DNA of 34,425 bases from Omnitrophica bacterium RIFOXYB12_FULL_50_7 (GCA_001804345.1 MHFU01000056.1:11034-45458), one strand, 5' to 3'; numbered from the stretch's first letter, positions 1,745 through 22,800 are shown. Numbers and translations: made by a program. The notes: generated by a model not told the origin, from the sequence alone.

Positions 1745-1833
1745 GGAGAGGTCGCATAGCCTGGTTTAGTGCGCTCGCCTGGAAAGCGGGTAGGCCAAAA
1801 GCCTCGCGAGTTCGAATCTCGCCCTCTCCGCCA
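1745..1833 (+). tRNA. tRNA-Ser(GGA), CCA encoded
   Basis: Acceptor GGAGAGG/CCTCTCC, anticodon loop CTGGAAA, long variable arm, T-loop TTCGAAT, discriminator G followed by CCA. Confidence 0.92.
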
Positions 1834-1849
1834 TAATTTTTTCAGTTTT

Positions 1850-1890
1850 GTCTGTGGTCTATACGTATAGTCTCTGGTCTGCTGTCTAGT
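1850..1890. repeat. Tandem heptamer array (GTCTNNN-type)
   Basis: GTCTGTG GTCTATA CGTATA GTCTCTG GTCTGCT GTCTAGT. Shares a 16-nt identical core, TATAGTCTCTGGTCTG, with the reverse complement of 21563-21591. Confidence 0.6.
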
Positions 1891-1894
1891 TCGT

Positions 1895-2261
1895 GGAGAG
1901 GTCGCATAGTCATTCGCTTCTTGGCGAATGACCTCGAGGCGCATGGCGCCGAGAGGCCTTTGAAATGCTGAAAGATTGGTTTCTCTACATCGTCGAATGT
2001 CGCACGAAAGATCTGTATGTCGGCATCGCTCAAGACGTAGAAAAACGGGTAGCCTTGCATAACAAGGGGCGCGCGTGCCGCTATACGAAGTTTAGGAGGC
2101 CCGCGGCGCCGGTCTATGAAGAGCTTTGCGGCACCTATGCGGCGGCCCGAAAGAGGGAAAAAGACGTTAAAGAGTTTTCCAGAGACAAGAAGTTGGCACT
2201 GAGAGATCTCTCGTCACAGAAAGCGTGACTCGAGGTCCAAAAATTTGCTCTATAAATTTTT
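1895..2261 (+). mobile_element. GIY-YIG cassette prefixed by a duplicated tRNA-Ser 5' end
   Basis: Starts GGAGAGGTCGCATAGTCATT, then a perfect 9-bp hairpin (GTCATTCGC/GCGAATGAC), a second conserved hairpin, the GIY-YIG ORF, and a tail homologous to 1700-1744. It abuts tRNA-Ser(GCU). Confidence 0.55.
1965..2228 (+). CDS. GIY-YIG nuclease family protein (UPF0213-like, 87 aa)
   Basis: WFLYIVECRTKDLYVGIAQDVEKRVALHNKG..RYTKFRRP..VYEE...REKDVKEFSRDKK matches the small GIY-YIG/URI-domain family pattern. Confidence 0.85.
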   Translation: MLKDWFLYIVECRTKDLYVGIAQDVEKRVALHNKGRACRYTKFRRPAAPVYEELCGTYAAARKREKDVKEFSRDKKLALRDLSSQKA

Positions 2262-2352
2262 GGAGAGGTCGCATAGCCCGGTTTAGTGCGGCGGTTTGCT
2301 AAACCGCTGTGGCGCGAAAGCGTCACCGGGGGTTCAAATCCCCCCCTCTCCG
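2262..2352 (+). tRNA. tRNA-Ser(GCU)
   Basis: Same acceptor and D region as the Ser(GGA) gene. Anticodon arm GCGGT TTGCTAA ACCGC, long variable arm, T-loop TTCAAAT. CCA is not encoded. Confidence 0.92.
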
Positions 2353-2568
2353 TTTTTATTTTTACCACCAAAACTGTTAGTTTTTACTTCATTCAGTTTT
2401 TCTCAAGCACGACGTTAACAGTGTCCCACGTCAGACTGAAGCCCACAGACTGCAGCCTGCAGGGAAACATCCGAAAAAGATAAGAACAATTCGCGCGCCG
2501 TAACTGCCGCCAATGACGGAGTCTCGTCGAAAGGCGGAAAAAGCCGCAATAAAAAAAGGAGTCCCGCC

Positions 2569-3333
2569 ATGGAAAACCAAACTAACGACAAATTGAATTT
2601 TCTCAAGAACACTCAGATCATTATTCTCGGGCTTTGTATCGCCGGGGCCACGATCGCATCAAGCATCATTTTTTCAAAAGGCTTTTTATCAGTGACGAAA
2701 TTTATGCGGGAACAGATCACCGTGACAGGCTCGGCGCAAAAAAACATCAAAAGCGATTATGCTGTGTGGGCCGGATCTTTCTCAAGGCGTGAGGTTGATA
2801 TGGCGACAGCTTTTAAAGGTCTCGGTGGAGATCTTGCGAAAGTAAAACAATACCTCACAACCCAGGGGAGCGGGGACAACGAGATTGTCGTTCGGCAGAT
2901 TGAGACCGAGACAATTTATAAAAAGAACGAGAAAGGTAATGCTACCAACGATATCGAGGGATACCGTCTTAAGCAGAATGTGGAGCTACATTCCAAGGAC
3001 GTTTATAAAATCGCCAGAATCTCTCGGGAAGCCACGGGGCTGATCAACGAGGGAATAGAATTTTATTCCGGGAGCCCGGAGTATTTCTATGCAAAGCTCG
3101 ATGAACTCAAGGTCGAAATGCTTGCCAAGGCCACCGAAAACGCCAAGCTTCGGGCGGAGAACATGGTCAAAGCCACAGGCAACAAGATCGGGTTCATGCG
3201 CTCCGCCCGGATGGGAGTCTTCCAGATCACGCCGGTCAACTCCACCGAAATCGCGGACTGGGGCATGAACGACACGAGCTCGCTGGACAAGAAAGTCACC
3301 GCGGTCGTTAACGCCAGTTTCTCGATCGAATAA
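2569..3333 (+). CDS. SIMPL (DUF541) domain protein with N-terminal membrane anchor
   Basis: 254 aa with an AAGGAG RBS. TM segment IIILGLCIAGATIASSIIF. ITVTGSA...and the C-terminal region (ENAKLRAENMVKATGNKIG...VFQITP) resemble the SIMPL/26-kDa periplasmic protein family. Confidence 0.7.
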   Translation: MENQTNDKLNFLKNTQIIILGLCIAGATIASSIIFSKGFLSVTKFMREQITVTGSAQKNIKSDYAVWAGSFSRREVDMATAFKGLGGDLAKVKQYLTTQGSGDNEIVVRQIETETIYKKNEKGNATNDIEGYRLKQNVELHSKDVYKIARISREATGLINEGIEFYSGSPEYFYAKLDELKVEMLAKATENAKLRAENMVKATGNKIGFMRSARMGVFQITPVNSTEIADWGMNDTSSLDKKVTAVVNASFSIE

Positions 3334-3348
3334 TAAAAAGGGATCTTT

Positions 3349-3376
3349 TTGCAATCCCCTCAGAAATGCGTATAAT
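3349..3376 (+). promoter_or_regulatory. Candidate sigma70 promoter upstream of tRNA-Arg
   Basis: TTGCAA (3349-3354), 16-nt spacer, TATAAT (3371-3376). Lies about 175 nt upstream of the tRNA. Confidence 0.45.
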
Positions 3377-3550
3377 GCACCCCTCTGTTCTTTCCGGATG
3401 GACGCCTATTTGACGCGGGGACTTTTCTGGAGAAAATGTCGAAAGAGGGCGTTTTCGTAAGTCGTTTAAAACAAAATGGTTACGACTAATGTGCTCTGAA
3501 CCACAATAGGTTCAGGGCAGCAGTGAGTAGAAGAAAAATTAATGTGGTTT

Positions 3551-3624
3551 GCGCCCGTAGCTCAATTGGATAGAGCACCACACTACGGATGTGGGGGTTG
3601 CAGGTTCAACTCCTGCCGGGCGCG
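3551..3624 (+). tRNA. tRNA-Arg(ACG)
   Basis: Acceptor GCGCCCG/CGGGCGC, D arm GCTC..GAGC, anticodon arm CCACA CTACGGA TGTGG, T arm GCAGG TTCAACT CCTGC. Confidence 0.93.
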
Positions 3625-11016: not shown

Positions 11017-11103
11017 GGAGAGGTGGCAGAGCGGTTGAATGCGGCAGTCTTGAAAACTGCTAAGTCCGCAAGGGCTTCGGGGGTTCGAATCCCTCCCTCT
11101 CCG
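11017..11103 (+). tRNA. tRNA-Ser(UGA)
   Basis: Acceptor GGAGAGG/CCTCTCC, anticodon arm GCAGT CTTGAAA ACTGC, long variable arm, T-loop TTCGAAT. Confidence 0.92.
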
Positions 11104-14963: not shown

Positions 14964-15199
14964 CTTGTCCTCCCTCGCTATTCCCTCTTATTATAAAACA
15001 AGACCGCTTTTCTCAGGAACAATAATTTCACGGTGAAAACAAAAACCGGACGGAGGAAGGCGGATGACAAAAGACAAAGAACCAAGAGCGTGACGCTATC
15101 TGCCCTCCCCCCTCCATTATCCGGAAAGTGATTTTTTGTGTCGCCAATCCGCGAGGGGATTGGTAAGATAACCACTGTTCGAACACAACGGAGTCTACA

Positions 15200-16177
15200 A
15201 TGATCACAAGTTTTTTTTATAAAAAAGGCGGAGAAATCGAAACGAATCTTTCCCGGGCACGGCTTCTTTCCGCGTTGAGCGAAAAAGGGGGGCTTCTCTG
15301 GGTTGATCTGGAGGAACCCAGCGAATTTGAGAGCGATTCCTTAGTCGAGATCTTCAACTTTCACCCTCTGGCGGTCGAAGACTGCATGACCGACCAATCT
15401 CAACCCAAGCTCGACGACTACGACGAGTATCTTTTTATGGTCGTTCACGCGATCGCCATGCACGACAAAGGCTCGAAAAGAGAGCTTCGAACCGTAGAGC
15501 TTGATATATTTATCGGTGAGAATTTCGTCGTTACCTTCCACAAGGAGCCTCTGGCGAGCGTGACCCAGGTACGCGAGCTTGTGCAAAAAAAGACCTCAGC
15601 GTTGATGGGGAGCGGTCCTGGCCTGCTCGTGCACTCCCTTCTGGATCATTTGGTCGACCGGTACCTTCCGGTTCTGAATGAATATGACGAGAAGATAGAC
15701 TCTCTTGAAAAAGAAATGTTTCGTCACACCACGAAAGATTTTCTGAAGACGTTGCTTCAGGTCAAACAAGACGTTTTTCATCTGCGGCGGATCGTGGGGC
15801 CTCAGAGGGACACTCTTTATTCTCTGACGCGCGATTCCAGCGCTTTTATCCGGACGGAACATTTGATGTATTTTCGCGACGTCTACGATCACCTTTTCAG
15901 GATCTACGGTATGGCCGAGGCATATCACGAGAACCTGAACAACATCCTGCAGGTCTATTTTTCGTATTCCTCTTTCCGGCTCAATGAAGTCCTGAAACAT
16001 TTGACCGTTTTGGCGACTGTCACCATGCCGCCCGTCATTATCGCGAGCATTTACGGCATGAACTTCAAACATTTTCCGGAGCTGGAATGGGCGCTGGGCT
16101 ATCCGTTCGCCATCGGTCTTTGCGTGCTCTCCTCCCTTGTCACGCTTGTCTGGATGAAGTTCAAGAAATGGATCTAG
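15200..16177 (+). CDS. corA: CorA family magnesium/cobalt transporter
   Basis: 325 aa. YGMNF signature (IASIYGMNFKHFPE) followed by a final TM helix and a basic tail. Confidence 0.9.
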   Translation: MITSFFYKKGGEIETNLSRARLLSALSEKGGLLWVDLEEPSEFESDSLVEIFNFHPLAVEDCMTDQSQPKLDDYDEYLFMVVHAIAMHDKGSKRELRTVELDIFIGENFVVTFHKEPLASVTQVRELVQKKTSALMGSGPGLLVHSLLDHLVDRYLPVLNEYDEKIDSLEKEMFRHTTKDFLKTLLQVKQDVFHLRRIVGPQRDTLYSLTRDSSAFIRTEHLMYFRDVYDHLFRIYGMAEAYHENLNNILQVYFSYSSFRLNEVLKHLTVLATVTMPPVIIASIYGMNFKHFPELEWALGYPFAIGLCVLSSLVTLVWMKFKKWI

Positions 16178-16249
16178 CGACGCACAACGAGCAACGAACA
16201 ACACGCATCATGCGACGCAAAGACAAGGCGTTGCGCGTTGACCGTTGAG
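16178..16249. repeat. Heptamer-built inverted repeat (CAACG-type), no cargo
   Basis: Starts directly after the corA TAG. Left arm CGACGCACAACGAGCAACGAACAACACGC, 21-nt loop, right arm GCGTTGCGCGTTGACCGTTGAG. Confidence 0.65.
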
Positions 16250-16262
16250 TAAAAAATCCCCC

Positions 16263-17342
16263 ATGAAAGCTTTATACGGTTCAACTTCCGACGAAATAGA
16301 AACTTTTGTCATAGCCCAAGGCCTTCCCAAATACCGCGCAGCCCAGATCCTGGATTGGATCTACCAGAAGAATGTCCTCGCCTGGGACGAGATCAAGAAC
16401 CTCCCGAAAGACGCCCTCCAAAAACTTTCCGGAGAAATCCGCCTTACCGCCCTTGAACCCGGAGAGGAAAAAAAAGCGGTGGCCGGAGGGCCGACAAAGT
16501 TTCTTTTCAAAACCCCGGATGGACATTTTCTTGAAAGTGTTTTGATCTCGCAAAAGGACGCCCCCGATTCCCGGGAAGGCGAGGAGACAATTCCTCAGGG
16601 GAGGCGGGAGACCGTGTGCGTTTCAACGCAGCTGGGATGCAAGATTCAATGCGCGTTTTGCGCGAGCGGTCAGGGGAAGTTCACCCGCAACCTCACGGCC
16701 GGCGAGATCGTCGAACAGGTCGCAAGAATCAGTCGGATGACAGGAAAAAAGATCACGAATGTTGTTTTTATGGGGATGGGGGAACCGCTCGATAATTATG
16801 AGGCCACGCTCAAGGCGGTCCGTATCTTGATCGAGCCCTGGGGGTTCGCTTTCGGAGCGCGAAGAGTCACGGTCTCGACCTCCGGGATTACCCCGAAGAT
16901 CCTGGAATTTGTAAAAGCCGTGGACGGGCGCGTCCGGCTTTCCGTGTCACTCCATTCCTCGATCGACGAAGTTCGCAGCTCTCTTGTTCCGATCAATCAA
17001 CGTTACCCTCTCAAGGAGCTTGTGAGTGCTTTGAGGAGGATCAATCAGGACCTGAAGCGCGAGATCACGTTCGAATACACGCTAATCGCTGGCGTGAACG
17101 ATTCCGACGAAGAGGCTGAGGGAATTGCCATGATCGCAAAACCCCTTCGTGCCAAGATCAATGTTATTCCTTATAACCCGATCGCGGAATTCCCGCACAA
17201 AGCGCCTACACCCGAAGCAACAGAGCGTTTTTGCGACCAGCTTGAGAGGCGCGGCCTTCGCGTGACGCTCAGGCAGACGGTGGGCCGCGACATTGATGCC
17301 GCGTGCGGGCAGCTCCGGTTGGACAGAATGTCCGCCCGGTAG
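16263..17342 (+). CDS. rlmN: 23S rRNA/tRNA A2503-type C2 methyltransferase, radical SAM
   Basis: YRAAQILDWIY N-terminal motif, CVSTQLGCKIQCAFCASG cluster, GMGEPL, C-terminal DIDAACGQL. I prefer ATG 16263 over the TTG at 16245. Confidence 0.9.
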   Translation: MKALYGSTSDEIETFVIAQGLPKYRAAQILDWIYQKNVLAWDEIKNLPKDALQKLSGEIRLTALEPGEEKKAVAGGPTKFLFKTPDGHFLESVLISQKDAPDSREGEETIPQGRRETVCVSTQLGCKIQCAFCASGQGKFTRNLTAGEIVEQVARISRMTGKKITNVVFMGMGEPLDNYEATLKAVRILIEPWGFAFGARRVTVSTSGITPKILEFVKAVDGRVRLSVSLHSSIDEVRSSLVPINQRYPLKELVSALRRINQDLKREITFEYTLIAGVNDSDEEAEGIAMIAKPLRAKINVIPYNPIAEFPHKAPTPEATERFCDQLERRGLRVTLRQTVGRDIDAACGQLRLDRMSAR

Positions 17343-17373
17343 CGCAACGCGCAACGGTCAACGCTCAACGGTC
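17343..17373. repeat. Left arm of CAACG-type heptamer inverted repeat
   Basis: CGCAACG CGCAACG GTCAACG CTCAACG GTC, starting immediately after the rlmN TAG. Overlaps the stop and last two codons of the four-helix-bundle gene. Confidence 0.65.
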
Positions 17374-17895
17374 TACCTTTTTGTTTAAACTGATGACCAT
17401 CCGCGTTAAATGGTCGACCTCTTCCAGCAAAAAAGACTTGTTTTCATTGGCAAAATAATTTAACTCACTCGAAACAATGATTTGAGTCTCGAGTTCTCCC
17501 AAAGAACCCAGGGCGATATTTAAGAACTGCTGAAATTCCTTAGCGTGCCTGCGGCGATACCCTTCCGCGATGTTCGAAGGAATTGAAACAGCGGCCCGTC
17601 TCATTTGCGCTACAAGGCCATAAATCTCCTCCCTCGGAAAGGCGCTCGTTTTTTGATAGATCATTTTTACCAGAGAAATACCCTTTTGCCATATTGCAAG
17701 ATCTCGGAACGACTTTACCACTTTTTGCGACAAATGTTGTTTTTCGGCGCCGCTTTCTTTGGGAGACAGATTTTTTTGTTGGTTTTCGATGAAGCTCGTC
17801 TTTTCTTCGTTCCATCGTCGGGGCTTATCGTATGGAGAAGGGTTGTTGCGGTGAGTGTTGGGCGTTGCCCGTTGTCCTGAAGTGTTGTTTTCCAT
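17365..17895 (-). CDS. Four-helix-bundle protein (23S rRNA intervening-sequence protein / Avd-like family) with N-terminal extension
   Basis: FRDLAIWQKG...MRRAAVSIPSNIAEGYRR....F..FLNIALGSLGELETQ is the characteristic family signature. About 60 aa of low-complexity extension lies upstream. Confidence 0.85.
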   Translation of the reverse strand: MENNTSGQRATPNTHRNNPSPYDKPRRWNEEKTSFIENQQKNLSPKESGAEKQHLSQKVVKSFRDLAIWQKGISLVKMIYQKTSAFPREEIYGLVAQMRRAAVSIPSNIAEGYRRRHAKEFQQFLNIALGSLGELETQIIVSSELNYFANENKSFLLEEVDHLTRMVISLNKKVDR

Positions 17896-17912
17896 CTTTT
17901 GTTTCTCCTTTT

Positions 17913-19607
17913 TCAGTTCGTTGCGCGTTGTGCGTTGAACGTTGCGCCGTTTTCTTCATCCGAGGATTGATAAAACCATAACTTATTAAACAAGGGCCTT
18001 TTCTCATAAATCCGTTCCAGCCTTTTCGAAAAAAACCCATCCGTTATTGCGTCTAAAAGAGATGTGAGTTCGTCCATGCGCAAAAGATTTTCAAGGTGCT
18101 CCTGTTCGGAGACGGGCGGCGTGAAGACGAGGTCGATCTGAAGGCGCCGGCGCTCGTAATAGATGCGTGTGGCTTCAGAGAGGAGGTCATTGCGGAGCTC
18201 CACCATGAGTTTCTCGCGTGAGTCGATCGAGGTTTGATCAGAACTGTAAACCATGTCGCCAAAGTCCCAGCTGACGTCCGCGTCCCAACCTTTGCCCACA
18301 TCTTCAGGTCCCGTGATGTACTTGCCGCTGTAAGTGCTGATGGAGGTGCTACGATCCAGGTTTTTACCGAACGAAAAGGTCGGCAAAAATCCTGCGAGCC
18401 TTGATTCGGCATGCCAGCGGCGGATCTTGCCGTTCGCGACATCAGCGTATTGAATGACGCATTTGTGAACTTCTCGAGCCGACGGTTCAAGCGCGAGGAG
18501 TTCTTTAAAAAGCGCGAGAGTTTCTTCGGGGGGTTGATAAAGTGTTACACTCGGGCCGGCTTCCGGCACAAACGCGTCAAGGGGGTACTGCACAAAACCC
18601 TCTTCGGTGATCGCAATCAGTTTTTCTTCGTTCAGCACGGCAATGCCTTGCGTGCGGTCTTTGGCTAATCCTTCAAAGAGACCCGTCCATTTTTGCGTAC
18701 GAGCCTCGTAAGCATAAACACCGCGAGGGGTTGCCGCATAAAGAAGCCCTTTTTTTTCTGAATAAGCGAGTTGATAAATAACAGGACTTTGCAAACCGCT
18801 TCTGGAAAGGGGTTCCCAGCGATGCCCGCCGTCGAGGCTTTGAAAGACACCGTTTGTGGTTGCAAGGAACAGTTCCTGCGGGTTGCGTTTCGAGACGAGC
18901 AGATCGTGGATCTTCAGATCAAAAGAGAGCGATTCTTCGGGGGGTTCCGAGTTCTCCTTGTCTGTGGCAGGGGTCTCCGTGCTGGTTTTTGAAAGATCGA
19001 GGACAGGATGCGCGGAACCCTCAGGCAGCGCGAAATAAAGAGTTTTTTCATCCGCCAAGAAAATCCGGTCATGGTCGAAGAGCAAAAGGGGGATGGGACC
19101 TGATGCGTGGAAGATAGCGGAGGGAGCCCAGGTACCTCCGGCGTTCTGTGTTTCCCAAAGGCCCTTTTGGGTTCCCAGGAACCAGCGGTTGGGATCTTTG
19201 GGGTGGACCGCGAAAGCGAGAGGATTTTTTTGGGTGTCTTTGTAGACCACGCGCCAGGAACGGTCTTTCAGGTTTCCCATAAAAACGCTTCGGCTCGTGA
19301 TCGCGAAAACAATGTCCGGCAGAACACCGAAAGAAAAGAGTCGCTTGATCGGCGCGGCCGCGTCGGTTTGGGACCAAAGAGGCTGCCACAAACTCCCCCT
19401 TCCGTTTTCAAAAATTTTATGTCCCGATGCGAGGAGAAATTTCGTCGGATCGAGAGGATGGATAGCGAGGCAGGTGAGGGCGCCGCCAGTCATGGACGGC
19501 TGAAGGGGCTTCTGCCATTCAGCCGGGGCCGGCATTTGAAATCCCAAGAAGCAGAGAAGCGATAGTGTGGCGCCCCAGACGATTGTTTTCTTGTTTATTT
19601 TCAACAC
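17913..19607 (-). CDS. Secreted protein with BNR/Ycf48-like beta-propeller repeats plus an unassigned C-terminal domain
   Basis: GTG start with a GGAGG RBS. Signal peptide KKTIVWGATLSLLCFLGF. Repeated G..W motifs (NAGGTWAPS, DGGHRWEPL, GRGSLWQPL). Confidence 0.55.
   Translation of the reverse strand: MLKINKKTIVWGATLSLLCFLGFQMPAPAEWQKPLQPSMTGGALTCLAIHPLDPTKFLLASGHKIFENGRGSLWQPLWSQTDAAAPIKRLFSFGVLPDIVFAITSRSVFMGNLKDRSWRVVYKDTQKNPLAFAVHPKDPNRWFLGTQKGLWETQNAGGTWAPSAIFHASGPIPLLLFDHDRIFLADEKTLYFALPEGSAHPVLDLSKTSTETPATDKENSEPPEESLSFDLKIHDLLVSKRNPQELFLATTNGVFQSLDGGHRWEPLSRSGLQSPVIYQLAYSEKKGLLYAATPRGVYAYEARTQKWTGLFEGLAKDRTQGIAVLNEEKLIAITEEGFVQYPLDAFVPEAGPSVTLYQPPEETLALFKELLALEPSAREVHKCVIQYADVANGKIRRWHAESRLAGFLPTFSFGKNLDRSTSISTYSGKYITGPEDVGKGWDADVSWDFGDMVYSSDQTSIDSREKLMVELRNDLLSEATRIYYERRRLQIDLVFTPPVSEQEHLENLLRMDELTSLLDAITDGFFSKRLERIYEKRPLFNKLWFYQSSDEENGATFNAQRATN
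17916..17949. repeat. Right arm of CAACG-type heptamer inverted repeat
   Basis: GTTCGTT GCGCGTT GTGCGTT GAACGTT GCGCCG, about 80 percent complementary to 17343-17373 unit by unit. It encodes the C-terminal tail NGATFNAQRATN of the 17913-19607 gene. Confidence 0.65.
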
Positions 19608-19893: not shown

Positions 19894-22800
19894 ATGAGGA
19901 AGCAAACGCCCAGAAACAAAAAAAGGAACCATAAAGAAAAAATGAGGGAGATTTCTAGTTTCAAGCGAACCATCAGCCTGATCATCGCTGTTTGTTTTCT
20001 GACAACGAATGCGATGGCTATGCCTGGTCAGGAAGCGTGGCTCGGGGAACGTGGAACGGGGAACGTATTCGGATCGAAAGATATTCTCTCGCTTTCTATG
20101 CCCTCGTCTCTTGGAACCGTTGTTGAAACTTATCGTGTGGAACAAAAAAACAGGCGTGGCACCCGTTTCCCGTTCACCGTTTCCCGGCACGACCCCATGG
20201 TCGTGTACATTCAAGACGCGCACGACTCCCTCGAAGCCCAGGAAAATATTGCTGGGATGGTCAAGTATCTTACGGAGCAGAAAGGCGTGCGGACAGTCTA
20301 TGAGGAAGGCTATGAAGGCCCGGTCCCCTCTGACCAACTCTTTGGAAACATCCAAGACACGACGCTTAAAGAAAAACTCTCCTATTACCTCATGGACAAA
20401 CTCCGCGTCAGCGGTGCTGAGTATGCGCACATTAACCGACTAGCGGATAGGGTACAGGGTATAGGGTATAGGAAAAACAAAAACAGTGAAGACCTATCCC
20501 TTAAACCCTATCCCCTAAACCCTGATTGGCAATTAATCGGTGCGGACTCGATCGCACTCCATCTCGAAAACATCCGGGCCTACGAACAAAGCGCCAAGAA
20601 ACGCGGGGATATTACCAAGGACATCCAGCGGATCCGCAAAGAACTTCAAAGGATCATGGACCGGAATTTTCCGAAAGAAATCAAACGGTGGATGGAGTTG
20701 CAGAGACGTTATCAGAATGGCCAATTACCGCTGATGGAATATTTACGCAGAACTTATTTGCTGTGGGAAACGGGAAACGGGAAACGGGCAACGAAAACGT
20801 TCAGCGTTCCCCGTTCCCCGTTCCCCGGGATCGGGGCCCTCTTTTCCGGCGATGAAAAAAAAATCAAACAGATCGATCTTGTGAAGCTGATGAGCGAGAT
20901 TCGCCAGCTCGAGGAAGAGGTGGTCGGAAAAGGACTTCCCGGGGATAGCGACCGGAAAACTTACGGGTATTATCAAAGCGTCCTACTTCTCGAAAAACTC
21001 AACGCGATCCAATTGAGTGCTGAGGAATATGCGGCACTCAAGGAATCACTTGAAAACCTCAAGACAGAAGATCTCGCTCAATTCATTGCCCGTGAAACGG
21101 GTCGGTCGATCGTGCTGTTCCGCTCCTGGGAAGATCTCATTACGGATTCGATCAATTTTTATGAGCTCGCGAAGAAACGTGACGAGGCTCTCGGGAAAAT
21201 TTTAGGGGATAGCGTAGAGGGTATAGGGTATAGGAAAAACAAAAACAGTGAAGATCTGCCTCCTAAACCCTATCCCCTAAACCTTAATGCTTCCATTTTG
21301 GTTTTTGGGGGTTTCCACAAAGAAGCCATCAAAAAGATCCTGAAAGAAAAAGGAATCTCGTACGTCATCCTTTCCCCATCCATTACCTCACCGAGCAAGC
21401 GGCATGAGGATTATTATCAGATGCTGATGAGCGGTGGAAAACACGCTTTCGAAACGCCTTCGGGCTTTTCGAAAAGACCACAGTCCCAATTCCAATCAAT
21501 TGAAGCGAATCGGAAATTGGGGCAGCCCCGACTACCATTCATTAAAAGAAATCAAAAGTTGGGACAGACCAGAGACTATAGACTAAAGACCAAAAGCCTC
21601 CTCTCCCCGCGGGAGAGGGAAGGGGTGAGGGGGAAAAGTCTCCAGTCTCCAGTCTCTAGTCTCCAGTCTGGCGGGAAGAGCGGTAGCGATTCACGACAAA
21701 GCATCGCCCGCGAAAGCACCTGCCCGCAGCGTGCTGTTGCAATGGATTACGCGCCCGTGATGGACCATCTCGCCGAAACCGGCGCGCCATTCCGTTCCGA
21801 AACCCGGGCGAATTTTATTTTGAAAATGGACCACGCCCTGTCGGACGAGCACCAGATTGCACCCTACAAACACCCGGGATTTGTAGGGTCAAACGAGAGC
21901 GCCCGCGCGGAGGTGCGGTCTGAAGTTCGATTGGGATTTCCGCCACTTGCAAAAAAATATCAACGATACATTGCCAAGCATGATTTAGATGCGCGGCCGG
22001 TACAAGCACAGCTGATTCATCCTGCTTTAGTCGGTCACGATATGGCCCAGAAGGACGTCATCAATCCCAATGACAAAGAACTTGCGGCGCTTGTTGCGGG
22101 TCCTAATGTTGATATTTCGAAAGTTTTACTCATGAGCAACGCGACGAAAGCTTTCTTTGTGGGGCATCGTCTGGGATTTCTTAAAGCTGATCGATTGCGG
22201 GATCGCCTCACGGCAACGGATTGGGAAAAACCTATTGAGCTGGAAGAGTATCGAGATCACAAATTCCGTACAGGCAGGGCACCGCTATACGAAGGCGTTA
22301 TTAAGGATGCTGAAACTGCCATTCTTATGGAATTACAAGCAATGCAAGTTGAGAAATCCAGCATTCAAATCTTTGATGATGCTGGAGCTAATGACGGCAA
22401 ACTCGCTGTAAGGATTCGCTTTCAATGGGCTTATCACAATCGCAAAGAGCGGGAATATGAATTTACGTTCTTTGATCATGATATTGAGCAAGGAAACTAC
22501 CCGCCGCTTTTAGAACAAGCGCTTAAAGAGAAAATAGACGTTTATCTTCAGTGGGCGCCTGGAACTCTGAGCGAAGCGTACCGCTATTTTCTGAGGCGCA
22601 TTTTGCCTGCGCTGCGGGAGGGTGGGCATATGGTTACGGATGATCGATATTACCATTCGTTTCTGAATGATGTGATTCATTACAGTATTTGTCCTTTTCT
22701 TGAGGATGATGATTCTAATTGGCAAGCGCGAGGTGTGAAAACGCAACCTTTCCAAAATGACTTTTTTATATTCGCGGCGCAAAAGGGAAACGACGGCACT

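Follow-up and report, generated by a model that had tools for sequence, protein, structure and literature searches.

Intervening sequences of the S23p type interrupt 23S rRNA genes and are reportedly known from Leptospira, Coxiella burnetii, Brucella and Haemophilus. Like the cassette described below, they encode a PF05635 protein, have terminal inverted repeats that pair into a long stem with the ORF in its loop, and are present or absent among relatives. In Coxiella, three to four GACAGAT heptamers precede the S23p ORF, the terminal stem is 28 bp long, and RNase III cleaves at the first repeat (PMC4990558). IVP genes, which encode PF05635/TIGR02436 four-helix-bundle proteins, have also been described scattered within cas operons (PMC3936711) and within CPR 16S and 23S rRNA insertions (10.1101/2024.02.27.582315).

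The accessory protein Avd of diversity-generating retroelements (DGRs), as in Bordetella phage BPP-1, shares a homologous four-helix-bundle fold with IVP, and relatives are nucleic-acid-binding pentamers. We know of no DGR in which inverted heptamer arrays are a feature. Short dispersed palindromes without an ORF are familiar as REP/BIME sequences, Neisseria Correia elements, Rickettsia palindromic elements (RPE) and MITEs. Tandem heptamers, the feature that makes up the cassette arms, occur as heptanucleotide repeats in bacteria, such as the cyanobacterial STRR and the TAACTGA repeat of Beggiatoaceae, Cyanobacteria and Bacteroidetes; these are arrays of two to six tandem units, mostly intergenic and near start codons, with lineage-specific units and no known function (PMC4679880). 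Unlike the cassette arms they are described as direct arrays, inverted arrangements being reported as rare (PMC4679880). The taxa that carry them overlap with IVP-rich taxa, and no link between STRR or TAACTGA repeats and PF05635 genes is reported in the searchable literature.

An IVP gene between inverted heptamer arrays

The window analysed here is a stretch of 34,425 nt from Omnitrophica bacterium RIFOXYB12_FULL_50_7 (GCA_001804345.1 MHFU01000056.1:11034-45458). A first-pass annotation of this DNA had proposed a stem-bounded cassette that carries a 23S-intervening-sequence-type gene in a protein-coding setting, a claim now supported by relatives, by an empty site and by the layout of the family. 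We consider it probable that the segment 17343-17949 represents a copy of a widespread, undescribed stem-bounded IVP cassette, a reading that includes RNA processing and spread, both inferred. The cassette consists of the IVP gene, its own ribosome-binding site and two inverted arms, each of about four heptamers with five fixed and two free positions. The features of this region are as follows.

16178-16203: left array of an ORF-less hairpin between corA and rlmN, CAACG type
16229-16249: right array of this hairpin, CGTTG type, separated from the left array by a loop of about 25 nt
16178..16249, no strand assigned: the whole ORF-less hairpin in the corA-rlmN gap, of the same family as the cassette arms
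16263..17342, plus strand: rlmN, radical SAM 23S rRNA/tRNA methyltransferase, the right-hand host flank
17343..17373, minus strand: cassette 3' arm, CGTTG type on the IVP sense strand
17365..17895, minus strand: IVP gene, 176 aa, PF05635/TIGR02436 four-helix-bundle protein
17856..17877, minus strand: a fifth array, CGTTG type, within IVP codons ~7-13 and in the orientation of the 5' arm
17905..17910, minus strand: Shine-Dalgarno sequence AAGGAG, 9 nt 5' of the IVP ATG (17895)
17913..19607, minus strand: 564-aa gene, the upstream host flank, function unknown, with weak BNR/Ycf48-like hits
17916..17949, minus strand: cassette 5' arm, GCGCAACGTTCAACGCACAACGCGCAACGAAC on the IVP sense strand, four CAACGNN units

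The four-helix-bundle domain occupies IVP residues 64-168, following a poorly conserved, low-complexity extension (residues 1-63). Matches to PF05635 (E 6e-37, 126.6 bits, cut-off 33.8), TIGR02436 (119.3 bits, cut-off 24) and NF008911 (145.7 bits, cut-off 137) all exceed the cut-offs of the models, and the protein matches PDB 2GSC with E 1.5e-25. The dN/dS of the domain is 0.07-0.1, which shows, by this measure, that the protein is kept by purifying selection; together with the strong Shine-Dalgarno sequence this sets the cassette apart from the Coxiella ORF, which is decaying and probably untranslated. The Shine-Dalgarno sequence sits between the 5' arm and the ATG, and the same order of arm, Shine-Dalgarno sequence and ATG is repeated in orthologous loci, the four CAACGNN units in the window lying at -52 to -21 relative to the ATG. 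The 564-aa gene, found in Omnitrophota only, is probably co-transcribed with the IVP gene, for which there are no transcript data; rlmN is convergent with the IVP gene.

Mapping of arrays recovered all four arms that had been annotated, alternating in orientation as described. The array at 17856-17877 had been missed; it is also found in the relative L011. Pairing of 17342-17370 with 17919-47 (29 nt, 83% complementary, 548 nt between) agrees with the annotation that the second pair of arms encloses the 176-aa gene, and the terminal stem of the sense transcript is predicted in both the minimum-free-energy and the centroid fold. The left array of the ORF-less hairpin can also pair with the cassette 5' arm (16180-99 with 17916-35, 20 nt, 95% complementary), and its right array with the 3' arm (16229-47 with 17352-70, 19 nt, 95% complementary). 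The latter would enclose rlmN, as had been suggested; this is possible in the source genome but is not conserved, the corresponding arms in the relative L212 being direct. Allowing at most one mismatch, CAACGNNCAACG has 15 matches in the window, 13 of them within 16178-17944, compared with 2.2 +/- 1.7 in 100 shuffles (maximum 7), and a scan for period-7 arrays that is independent of the unit finds 13 in the window and 0.8 in shuffles. An assembly artefact is excluded, because the locus recurs in ENA, NCBI, JGI and Logan assemblies. Rfam matches in the window are limited to four tRNAs, with no rRNA gene present, and with Rfam 15 covariance models neither the window region nor any of eight hairpin loci rises above noise.

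The 3' arm overlaps the IVP stop codon and abuts that of rlmN, and about 12 codons at the end of the 564-aa gene are arm sequence, as the first-pass annotation had it. The further idea that CAACG arms begin directly after a TAG holds for the corA TAG (16175-77) and the rlmN TAG (17340-42), and for L011, but is not general, because rlmN continues into the arm in L007 and L212.

The same site in relatives and the layout of the family

Six relatives conserve the neighbourhood, with identities of 69-93% for the 564-aa gene, rlmN and a response regulator; corA falls into two allele classes with 57-91% identity. For the close relatives, identity of the flanking genes is 74-90%. Relatives that carry this gene without inverted arms would have refuted the cassette, and none appeared; arms are retained around the IVP gene in all six lineages examined, although their units differ (CAACG, GGGACTC, GGGGAAC and CCACAAG). 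The window, L007 and L011 all have CAACG arms; their IVP domains are 82% identical, and the CAACG cores are maintained on both arms despite dS above 1. IVP identity is 46% in L211, which has GGGACTC arms, and 54% in L212, which has GGGGAAC arms. The empty site that had been proposed as a check exists: the close relative L213 has neither the IVP gene nor the arms, and the neighbouring genes overlap tail to tail.

Homology of both host ORFs is lost exactly at the arm boundaries, at ...ACGQLRLDR in rlmN and at ...LWxYQ in the 564-aa gene, with the last codons read into the arms. Gene callers stretch neighbouring ORFs into arms, and the adjacent C- or N-termini are often artefactual or element-derived. 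Different sets of IVP gene and arms, or neither, lie between conserved flanks, and gene and arms therefore behave as one replaceable unit; the comparison shows that gain, loss and replacement of the IVP gene always involve both arms, while the chromosomal site stays fixed. The replacement at this one site could instead be homologous recombination via the conserved flanks after horizontal transfer. The unit changes on both sides at orthologous arms while the site stays fixed, which hints at active copying or conversion.

A search for PF05635/TIGR02436 returned 6802 clusters, with plasmid hits mostly from Nostoc, Calothrix and Anabaena. Inverted tandem-heptamer arrays enclose 72% of 65 metagenomic IVP ORFs but only 6.7% of 180 neighbouring ORFs (across-gene inverted repeat, Mann-Whitney p = 8e-21), and against permuted flank pairs 68% lie above the 95th percentile. 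An independent sample of IMG/VR viral contigs gave a similar value (20 of 29 enclosed, 69%). The across-gene repeat beats any within-flank hairpin in 68 of 69 loci. The arms have a period of 7 in 61 of the 69 loci and a median length of 27 nt, with about four units (interquartile range 3-4.7) that vary between loci and have five conserved and two variable columns. About 30% of IVP genes lack arms under ungapped scoring. Among arm mismatches, G.U on the sense strand (66) is no more frequent than A.C (75), and many are transversions; with no wobble bias, the mismatches do not demonstrate selection for an RNA stem, and it could be at the DNA level that complementarity is maintained.

Heptamer palindromes without an ORF

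The hairpin between corA and rlmN, annotated as empty, is real, but it is one of a very large population in PVC bacteria, most of which are not beside an IVP gene. Relatives have other units or remnants at its orthologous position. We list at least 118 heptamer-array hairpin loci (L013-L130) from Verrucomicrobiota, Omnitrophota, Lentisphaerota, Planctomycetota and Gemmatimonadota, and among those listed only 2 of 118 have an IVP ORF within 8 kb. The hairpins lie in tandem (42), convergent (12) and divergent (15) gene contexts. A search for other copies shows that the arms are no one-off terminator: at least five different CAACG hairpins with short loops are present at equal depth in the source metagenome. 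Identity as intrinsic terminators, which would be short GC-rich hairpins with a U-run confined to 3' ends, can be rejected, given that a terminator scan is at background level (4 versus 3.2 expected) and that divergent intergenic hairpins (15 of 69) are as frequent as chance predicts. In the loci sampled, 12-mers of a cassette's own arms recur 22 times elsewhere in the same locus, compared with about once for the arms of other loci. The arms are thus part of a population of ORF-less heptamer-array palindromes in the genome, which includes the corA-rlmN hairpin and the palindromes of the giant gene described next.

Similar palindromes lie in frame within a giant gene (start 19942) on the plus strand, in the region 20042..21671.

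20042-20182: palindrome 1, GGGGAAC / GTTTCCC
20441-20525: palindrome 2, GGGTATA
20762-20830: palindrome 3, GGGAAAC / GTTCCCC
21209-21285: palindrome 4, second GGGTATA copy, loop identical to the first
21564-21671: palindrome 5, AGAGACT / AGTCTCC

In being in frame within a protein-coding gene these resemble RPE. They also recall Correia elements in their potential for RNase III cleavage, and MITEs in that ORF-less palindromes are related to a longer, gene-carrying element. Unlike REP, Correia elements, RPE and MITEs, they have tandem-heptamer arms whose unit varies from element to element; the gene-carrying form has no transposase, no target-site duplication can be recognised, and no RAYT gene was seen.

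Mechanism, alternatives and meaning

As part of the explanation that we favour, the cassette is the non-ribosomal counterpart of the S23p-type 23S rRNA intervening sequence, its nearest known relative. Coxiella too has tandem heptamers directly 5' of the ORF and a stem whose 28 bp equal four times seven. The cassette differs in lying outside rRNA, between convergent protein-coding genes whose ORFs end in its arms; with rlmN and the 564-aa gene as flanks, it is not in helix 25 or 45 of a 23S rRNA gene. In addition, its arms occur alongside it in many ORF-less copies. We propose that the cassette would be transcribed from the upstream 564-aa gene, an inference for which only DNA runs contain the locus, and that the two arms would pair in the RNA, closing the IVP message within a long, interrupted stem. 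By analogy with rRNA intervening sequences, for which processing has been shown, RNase III may cut this stem, although there is no transcript evidence here; cleavage would release the IVP mRNA and spare the host transcript any harm from the insertion. Both the cassette and the ORF-less forms derived from it may spread as selfish elements through an unidentified DNA-level mechanism acting on the palindrome. Against this reading, the heptamer unit tracks the host repertoire more than the IVP lineage, and short hairpins seldom lie near an IVP gene. The cassette itself codes for no transposase, integrase or reverse transcriptase, no transposase gene is present in the window, the arm boundaries show no visible direct repeat, and the L213 empty site is too diverged to define a duplication.

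The IVP gene might instead be an ordinary resident that happens to lie between two half-elements, the palindromes being REP-like elements, or mere filler between genes, in PVC bacteria. That the hairpins are so widespread without an IVP gene, occur alike in every gene context and even enter a giant gene is in keeping with such a coincidence. We nevertheless consider it improbable: IVP genes are enclosed by arms far more often than neighbours in the same loci, the two arms stand on either side of the gene and not together in a local hairpin in 68 of 69 loci, the empty-site relative lacks arms as well as gene, and Coxiella has a matching layout. Another possibility, compatible with the cassette reading, is an autoregulatory operator, in which an IVP pentamer binds its own heptamers in mRNA or DNA, about one unit per subunit, with the dispersed hairpins as further targets. 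TRAP and HutP offer a likeness as proteins that bind repeated triplets. About four units per arm would roughly suit the homopentamer reported for the solved homologue 2GSC, five fixed and two free positions resemble a protein-binding repeat, IVP allele and arm unit switch together at the conserved Omnitrophota site, and in L211 and L212 the IVP-arm unit reappears in a giant-gene hairpin. We regard this as unlikely all the same. Only 33% of IVP pairs at 75-90% identity have a 7-mer in common, whereas the L235 IVP, just 42% identical to that of the window, shares CAACGTT with it; there is therefore no simple protein-to-unit code. Moreover, one genome has several different units but only one IVP is seen in the 34-kb window, and there are no binding data.

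The remaining alternatives have very little in their favour. The first-pass annotation had also pointed to the Avd accessory protein of DGRs, and PF05635 is indeed homologous to Avd. The NF033474 match is weak, though (E 1e-4, 22.6 bits against an 80-bit cut-off), while the stand-alone models TIGR02436 and NF008911 pass their own cut-offs; no reverse transcriptase gene was found in the 20.5 kb around the IVP gene (L001) in any of seven versions of the locus, and PADLOC gave no match. With the Avd score below cut-off and no reverse transcriptase nearby, this identity is effectively refuted for the locus. It is equally hard to credit an invertible or phase-variable segment in which the arms mediate flipping of the gene. 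A 29-nt inverted repeat around a 548-bp segment would permit it, but the arms are imperfect, no recombinase gene is nearby, strand-changing joints were not found in four metagenome runs, and gene orientation relative to the flanks is constant in all relatives.

A broader hypothesis, which we put forward only tentatively and think more likely wrong than right, is that PF05635 proteins and tandem-heptamer palindromes are two halves of one widespread, unrecognised system with partner, autonomous, derivative, rRNA and footprint roles. The Avd-like pentamer would bind heptamer arrays, or help to propagate or rewrite them, for which binding data are lacking. Gene-bearing cassettes would be the autonomous form, and ORF-less hairpins, both intergenic and inside giant genes, their derivatives. 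Cassettes that had inserted into hairpin loops of rRNA would account for the intervening sequences there, and heptanucleotide repeats, whose overabundance in cyanobacteria, Bacteroidota, Beggiatoaceae and PVC bacteria has long been noted, would be the footprint of the system.

No function outside DGRs is known for the very large PF05635/TIGR02436 family, and its rRNA intervening sequences have been unexplained since 1993. That about 70% of IVP genes share the enclosed layout in the loci sampled suggests a class of gene cassette that has not been described before and that is acquired, lost and exchanged as a whole. The locus joins three unexplained things, namely intervening sequences in rRNA, Avd-like genes that stand alone and the heptanucleotide repeats of bacteria, and, judging by this locus and its relatives, the normal habitat of the IVP family is a stem-bounded cassette with heptamer-array arms.

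The IVP cassette and its arms at the window locus

Several independent assemblies contain contigs matching this locus, which belongs to a groundwater Candidatus Omnitrophota population. The genes relevant here are the following:

15200-16177, plus strand: corA
16263-17342, plus strand: rlmN
17365-17895, minus strand: gene for the 176-aa four-helix-bundle protein (IVP)
17913-19607, minus strand: 564-aa gene
from 19942, plus strand: giant gene of more than 6700 aa

The IVP is a clear member of PF05635/TIGR02436/NF008911, with the pentameric Xanthomonas protein 2GSC among its homologues; its gene has a strong AAGGAG 9 nt ahead of the ATG. The first-pass annotation had interpreted the gene as a stem-bounded cassette outside rRNA and had associated it with Avd, the accessory protein of diversity-generating retroelements (DGRs). 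The cassette interpretation stands; the association with Avd and DGRs does not, since the protein scores far under the cut-off of the DGR Avd model. No PADLOC defence model matched the protein. Among relatives whose arms share the CAACG unit, the IVP domain has a dN/dS of 0.07-0.1 at dS >1, which shows the protein to be functional. Evolution is faster in the 59 N-terminal residues (dN/dS of 0.34-0.57), despite which their reading frame is open in 15 relatives.

The inverted heptamer arms described earlier around the IVP gene were confirmed, and all of those listed are present at the locus. Allowing at most one mismatch, CAACGNNCAACG has 15 matches in the window versus 2.2 expected, 13 of them within 16178-17944. 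The arms that enclose the gene (17342-17370 and 17919-17947; 29 nt, 83% complementary) make up the terminal stem of the sense transcript in its minimum-energy and centroid folds alike. A fifth array, absent from the earlier list, lies at 17856-17877, within the first codons of the IVP ORF. Within the CAACG group, the CAACG cores are kept on both arms at dS >1, meaning that the arms are maintained rather than relics. We found no inversion or deletion alleles of the locus in the source metagenome, where joints that appeared to skip it were other genomic hairpins with unrelated flanks.

Other features of the window include a period-7 array, GACAAAAGACAAAGAACCAAGA, at 15066-15087, which lies upstream of corA and for which we detected no inverted partner, and four tRNA genes (1745-3624 and 11017-11103) that bear no relation to the cassette. 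In another assembly of the same population (L006, 2877-3932), the corA call comprises 264 aa and a separate 53-aa ORF covering the hairpin; the cause is a frameshift variant or else an error of assembly.

Variation at the orthologous site and in the giant gene

We retrieved the orthologous locus from relatives both through the IVP and through its 564-aa neighbour. Identity across six genomes is 69-93% for the 564-aa gene, rlmN and the response regulator, and the site between the 564-aa gene and rlmN occurs in four states:

States of the site between the 564-aa gene and rlmN (L-numbers denote loci from relatives)
Window, L007 and L011: IVP domain 82% identical; arm unit CAACG
L211: IVP domain 46% identical to the window; arm unit GGGACTC
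L212: IVP domain 54% identical to the window; arm unit GGGGAAC
L213: neither IVP nor arms; tail-to-tail overlap between the two host genes

In L214, a more distant relative, the IVP is different again and its arms are CCACAAG/CTTGTGG. Host-protein homology ends exactly at the arm boundaries (...LWxYQ in the 564-aa protein, ...ACGQLRLDR in RlmN), and the last residues of both proteins are encoded by whichever arm is present, indicating that the cassette is gained, lost or replaced whole. The IVP gene and its arms behave as one unit. The first-pass annotation had held that finding the gene here without inverted arms in related genomes would refute its reading; the outcome favours that reading, with the IVP alleles retaining arms and the empty L213 site lacking both.

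Two allele classes of corA were observed. The window, L007 and L212 form one, at ~90% identity; L011 and L213 form the other, at 82%. Identity between the classes is only 57-60%, while the genes on either side stay at 82-93%, suggesting that a corA allele was replaced beside the hairpin site.

The first-pass annotation missed five in-frame heptamer-array palindromes at 19942-21671 (plus strand), in the first ~580 codons of the giant gene, with units GGGGAAC, GGGTATA (twice), GGGAAAC and AGTCTCC. The in-frame palindromes inside this giant gene resemble the Rickettsia palindromic elements. The orthologous linker sites in relatives have hairpins with other units, or none, and in L211 and L212 one giant-gene hairpin has the unit of that genome's own IVP arms. 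A single genome may carry one unit, or even one entire element, at several sites: the two GGGTATA copies in the window have identical loops, and GTACGGC occurs at three sites in L007. Either the linker sites are hot spots with rapid turnover, or their palindromes are overwritten by a copying process. L213, whose 564-aa gene is 73% identical, lacks the IVP cassette and every giant-gene hairpin of its relatives, and has no more than a weak GAGATTT/GAAATTT array between corA and rlmN. The joint absence of cassette and giant-gene hairpins would fit a functional link, although as a single case it is no more than suggestive.

Heptamer arrays with and without IVP genes

For 80 metagenomic IVP loci, we compared the 220 nt before the gene with the 150 nt after it and scored the best inverted repeat between the two; scoring was ungapped, and the gene models are crude, being simply the longest ORFs of the fetched loci. 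Permuted flank pairs had a median score of 8, versus 15.25 for the IVP loci, 68% of which exceeded the 95th percentile of this null. Seventy-two percent of 65 IVP genes are enclosed by such repeats, versus 6.7% of 180 neighbouring ORFs from the same loci (p = 8e-21), some of which lie next to an IVP cassette and may have been scored on its arms; in an independent sample of viral contigs, 20 of 29 IVP genes are enclosed. In all but one of 69 loci the repeat across the gene is stronger than any single-flank hairpin, so the gene does separate the two arms. The arm period is 7 in 61 of the 69 loci and 8 in the remaining eight, with a median arm length of 27 nt and five conserved plus two variable positions per unit. 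Units vary by locus (for example GTGAAGC, CGTATAT, GAGTATC, AGGCACA, TAGTGAA and AGAGTGG), and 12-mers from a cassette's own arms recur 22 times elsewhere in the same locus, as against ~1 for arms of other loci. A heptamer-array-bounded cassette is thus the usual state of the IVP gene family, with the proviso that these loci, being retrieved through conserved IVP peptides, sample one large subfamily.

The 5' arm contains little C (15%) in most cassettes, a polarity that is reversed in the window's CAACG-type cassette. Cultured bacteria also have such cassettes: on pNPUN02 of Nostoc punctiforme PCC 73102, an annotated "four helix bundle protein" gene (NPUN_RS35280) has four copies of AGGAGTC before it and the complement at its 3' end. 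On plasmid alpha of Nostoc sp. PCC 7120 (L246, 3776-4126), an IVP gene has a 3' array of five CTTCTGC/CCTCTGC units and no visible 5' arm; an annotated transposase gene lies ~550 nt upstream and an IS200/IS605 tnpA downstream.

Similar arrays occur without a gene between them. L011 has such "empty" CAACG hairpins in three ordinary intergenic gaps within 12.5 kb, and when one genome per species was scanned for CAACGNNCAACG-N10-40-CGTTGNNCGTTG, at least 118 stretches matched. The matches listed are overwhelmingly from metagenome-assembled genomes of the PVC superphylum (Verrucomicrobiota including Akkermansia, Omnitrophota, Lentisphaerota and Planctomycetota), plus Gemmatimonadota; Akkermansia muciniphila is among the carriers. 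The source metagenome contains no fewer than five other CAACG hairpins with short loops, at a depth equal to that of the window genome. The scan hairpins consist of 3-6 units, a 10-40 nt loop and the inverse array, always with the CAACG arm first. They occupy intergenic gaps regardless of whether the flanking genes are in tandem, convergent or divergent, and hence are not terminators, a reading ruled out by the gene-context counts together with a terminator scan. There is no enrichment of IVP genes beside short-loop hairpins, with an IVP ORF in two of 118 among the matches listed. Thus, the hairpins do not mark IVP genes, yet arms do. Many verrucomicrobial hairpins are preceded by ATGAAG..AAAACG (L013, L017, L018, L088, L089, L095, L110 and other scan loci), sometimes with GGAG at Shine-Dalgarno distance, such that short ORFs or the N-termini of real genes may start in or cross the arms; ORFs entering these arms may give QRPTSNV-type peptides.

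Rfam had nothing for the hairpins or arms, either at gathering thresholds (the window and eight hairpin loci) or at permissive E-values (16000-18100). A full-text literature search for the arm sequences gave irrelevant matches only, and we found no literature on heptanucleotide repeats in Verrucomicrobia. Tandem heptamer repeats of unknown function have been recorded in cyanobacteria, Beggiatoaceae and Bacteroidota, with no link to the IVP protein (PMC4679880).

Possible roles of the arms and relation to intervening sequences

Our comparisons establish how the cassette is built, that it behaves as a unit, that its protein is under selection and that the arm repertoire is shared; what the arms do is inferred. 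The cassette would be co-transcribed with the 564-aa gene, and no promoter-like site was found between that gene and the IVP gene. The arms would then pair in RNA, and RNase III may cut the interrupted stem as it does in rRNA, which would release the IVP message and insulate the host transcript. We found no RNA runs containing the window sequence. As a test for an RNA stem, we looked for wobble pairs among the arm mismatches and saw no excess of G.U for either strand (66 G.U versus 75 A.C), and closely related IVPs often carry unrelated units, whereas one distant pair shares a unit. Together with the unit changes at the giant-gene linker sites, these observations weigh against a purely RNA-level role. 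A code relating protein sequence to heptamer unit is weak, and is contradicted by several pairs. We found no enzyme encoded in the cassette, so an enzyme of its own does not explain the spread of the cassette or of the ORF-less hairpins.

The closest known relative is the S23p-type intervening sequence (IVS) of 23S rRNA, which shares its anatomy with the window cassette. In Coxiella, three or four GACAGAT heptamers precede the S23p ORF, and the IVS is closed by a 28-bp terminal stem, equal to four heptamers, with RNase III cutting at the first repeat (PMC4990558). Unlike these rRNA insertions, the window cassette sits among protein-coding genes. We found no paper, in open-access text, on non-ribosomal IVP genes enclosed by inverted heptamer arrays. 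IVP genes have been described wedged within cas operons (PMC3936711) and in 16S and 23S insertions of CPR bacteria (10.1101/2024.02.27.582315), placements that fit a promiscuous cassette. Our analysis supports the element being an S23p/IVP cassette that resembles an IVS, is bounded by a stem with heptamer-array arms and lies outside rRNA, and these arms belong to an undescribed and very abundant class of heptamer-array palindromes.
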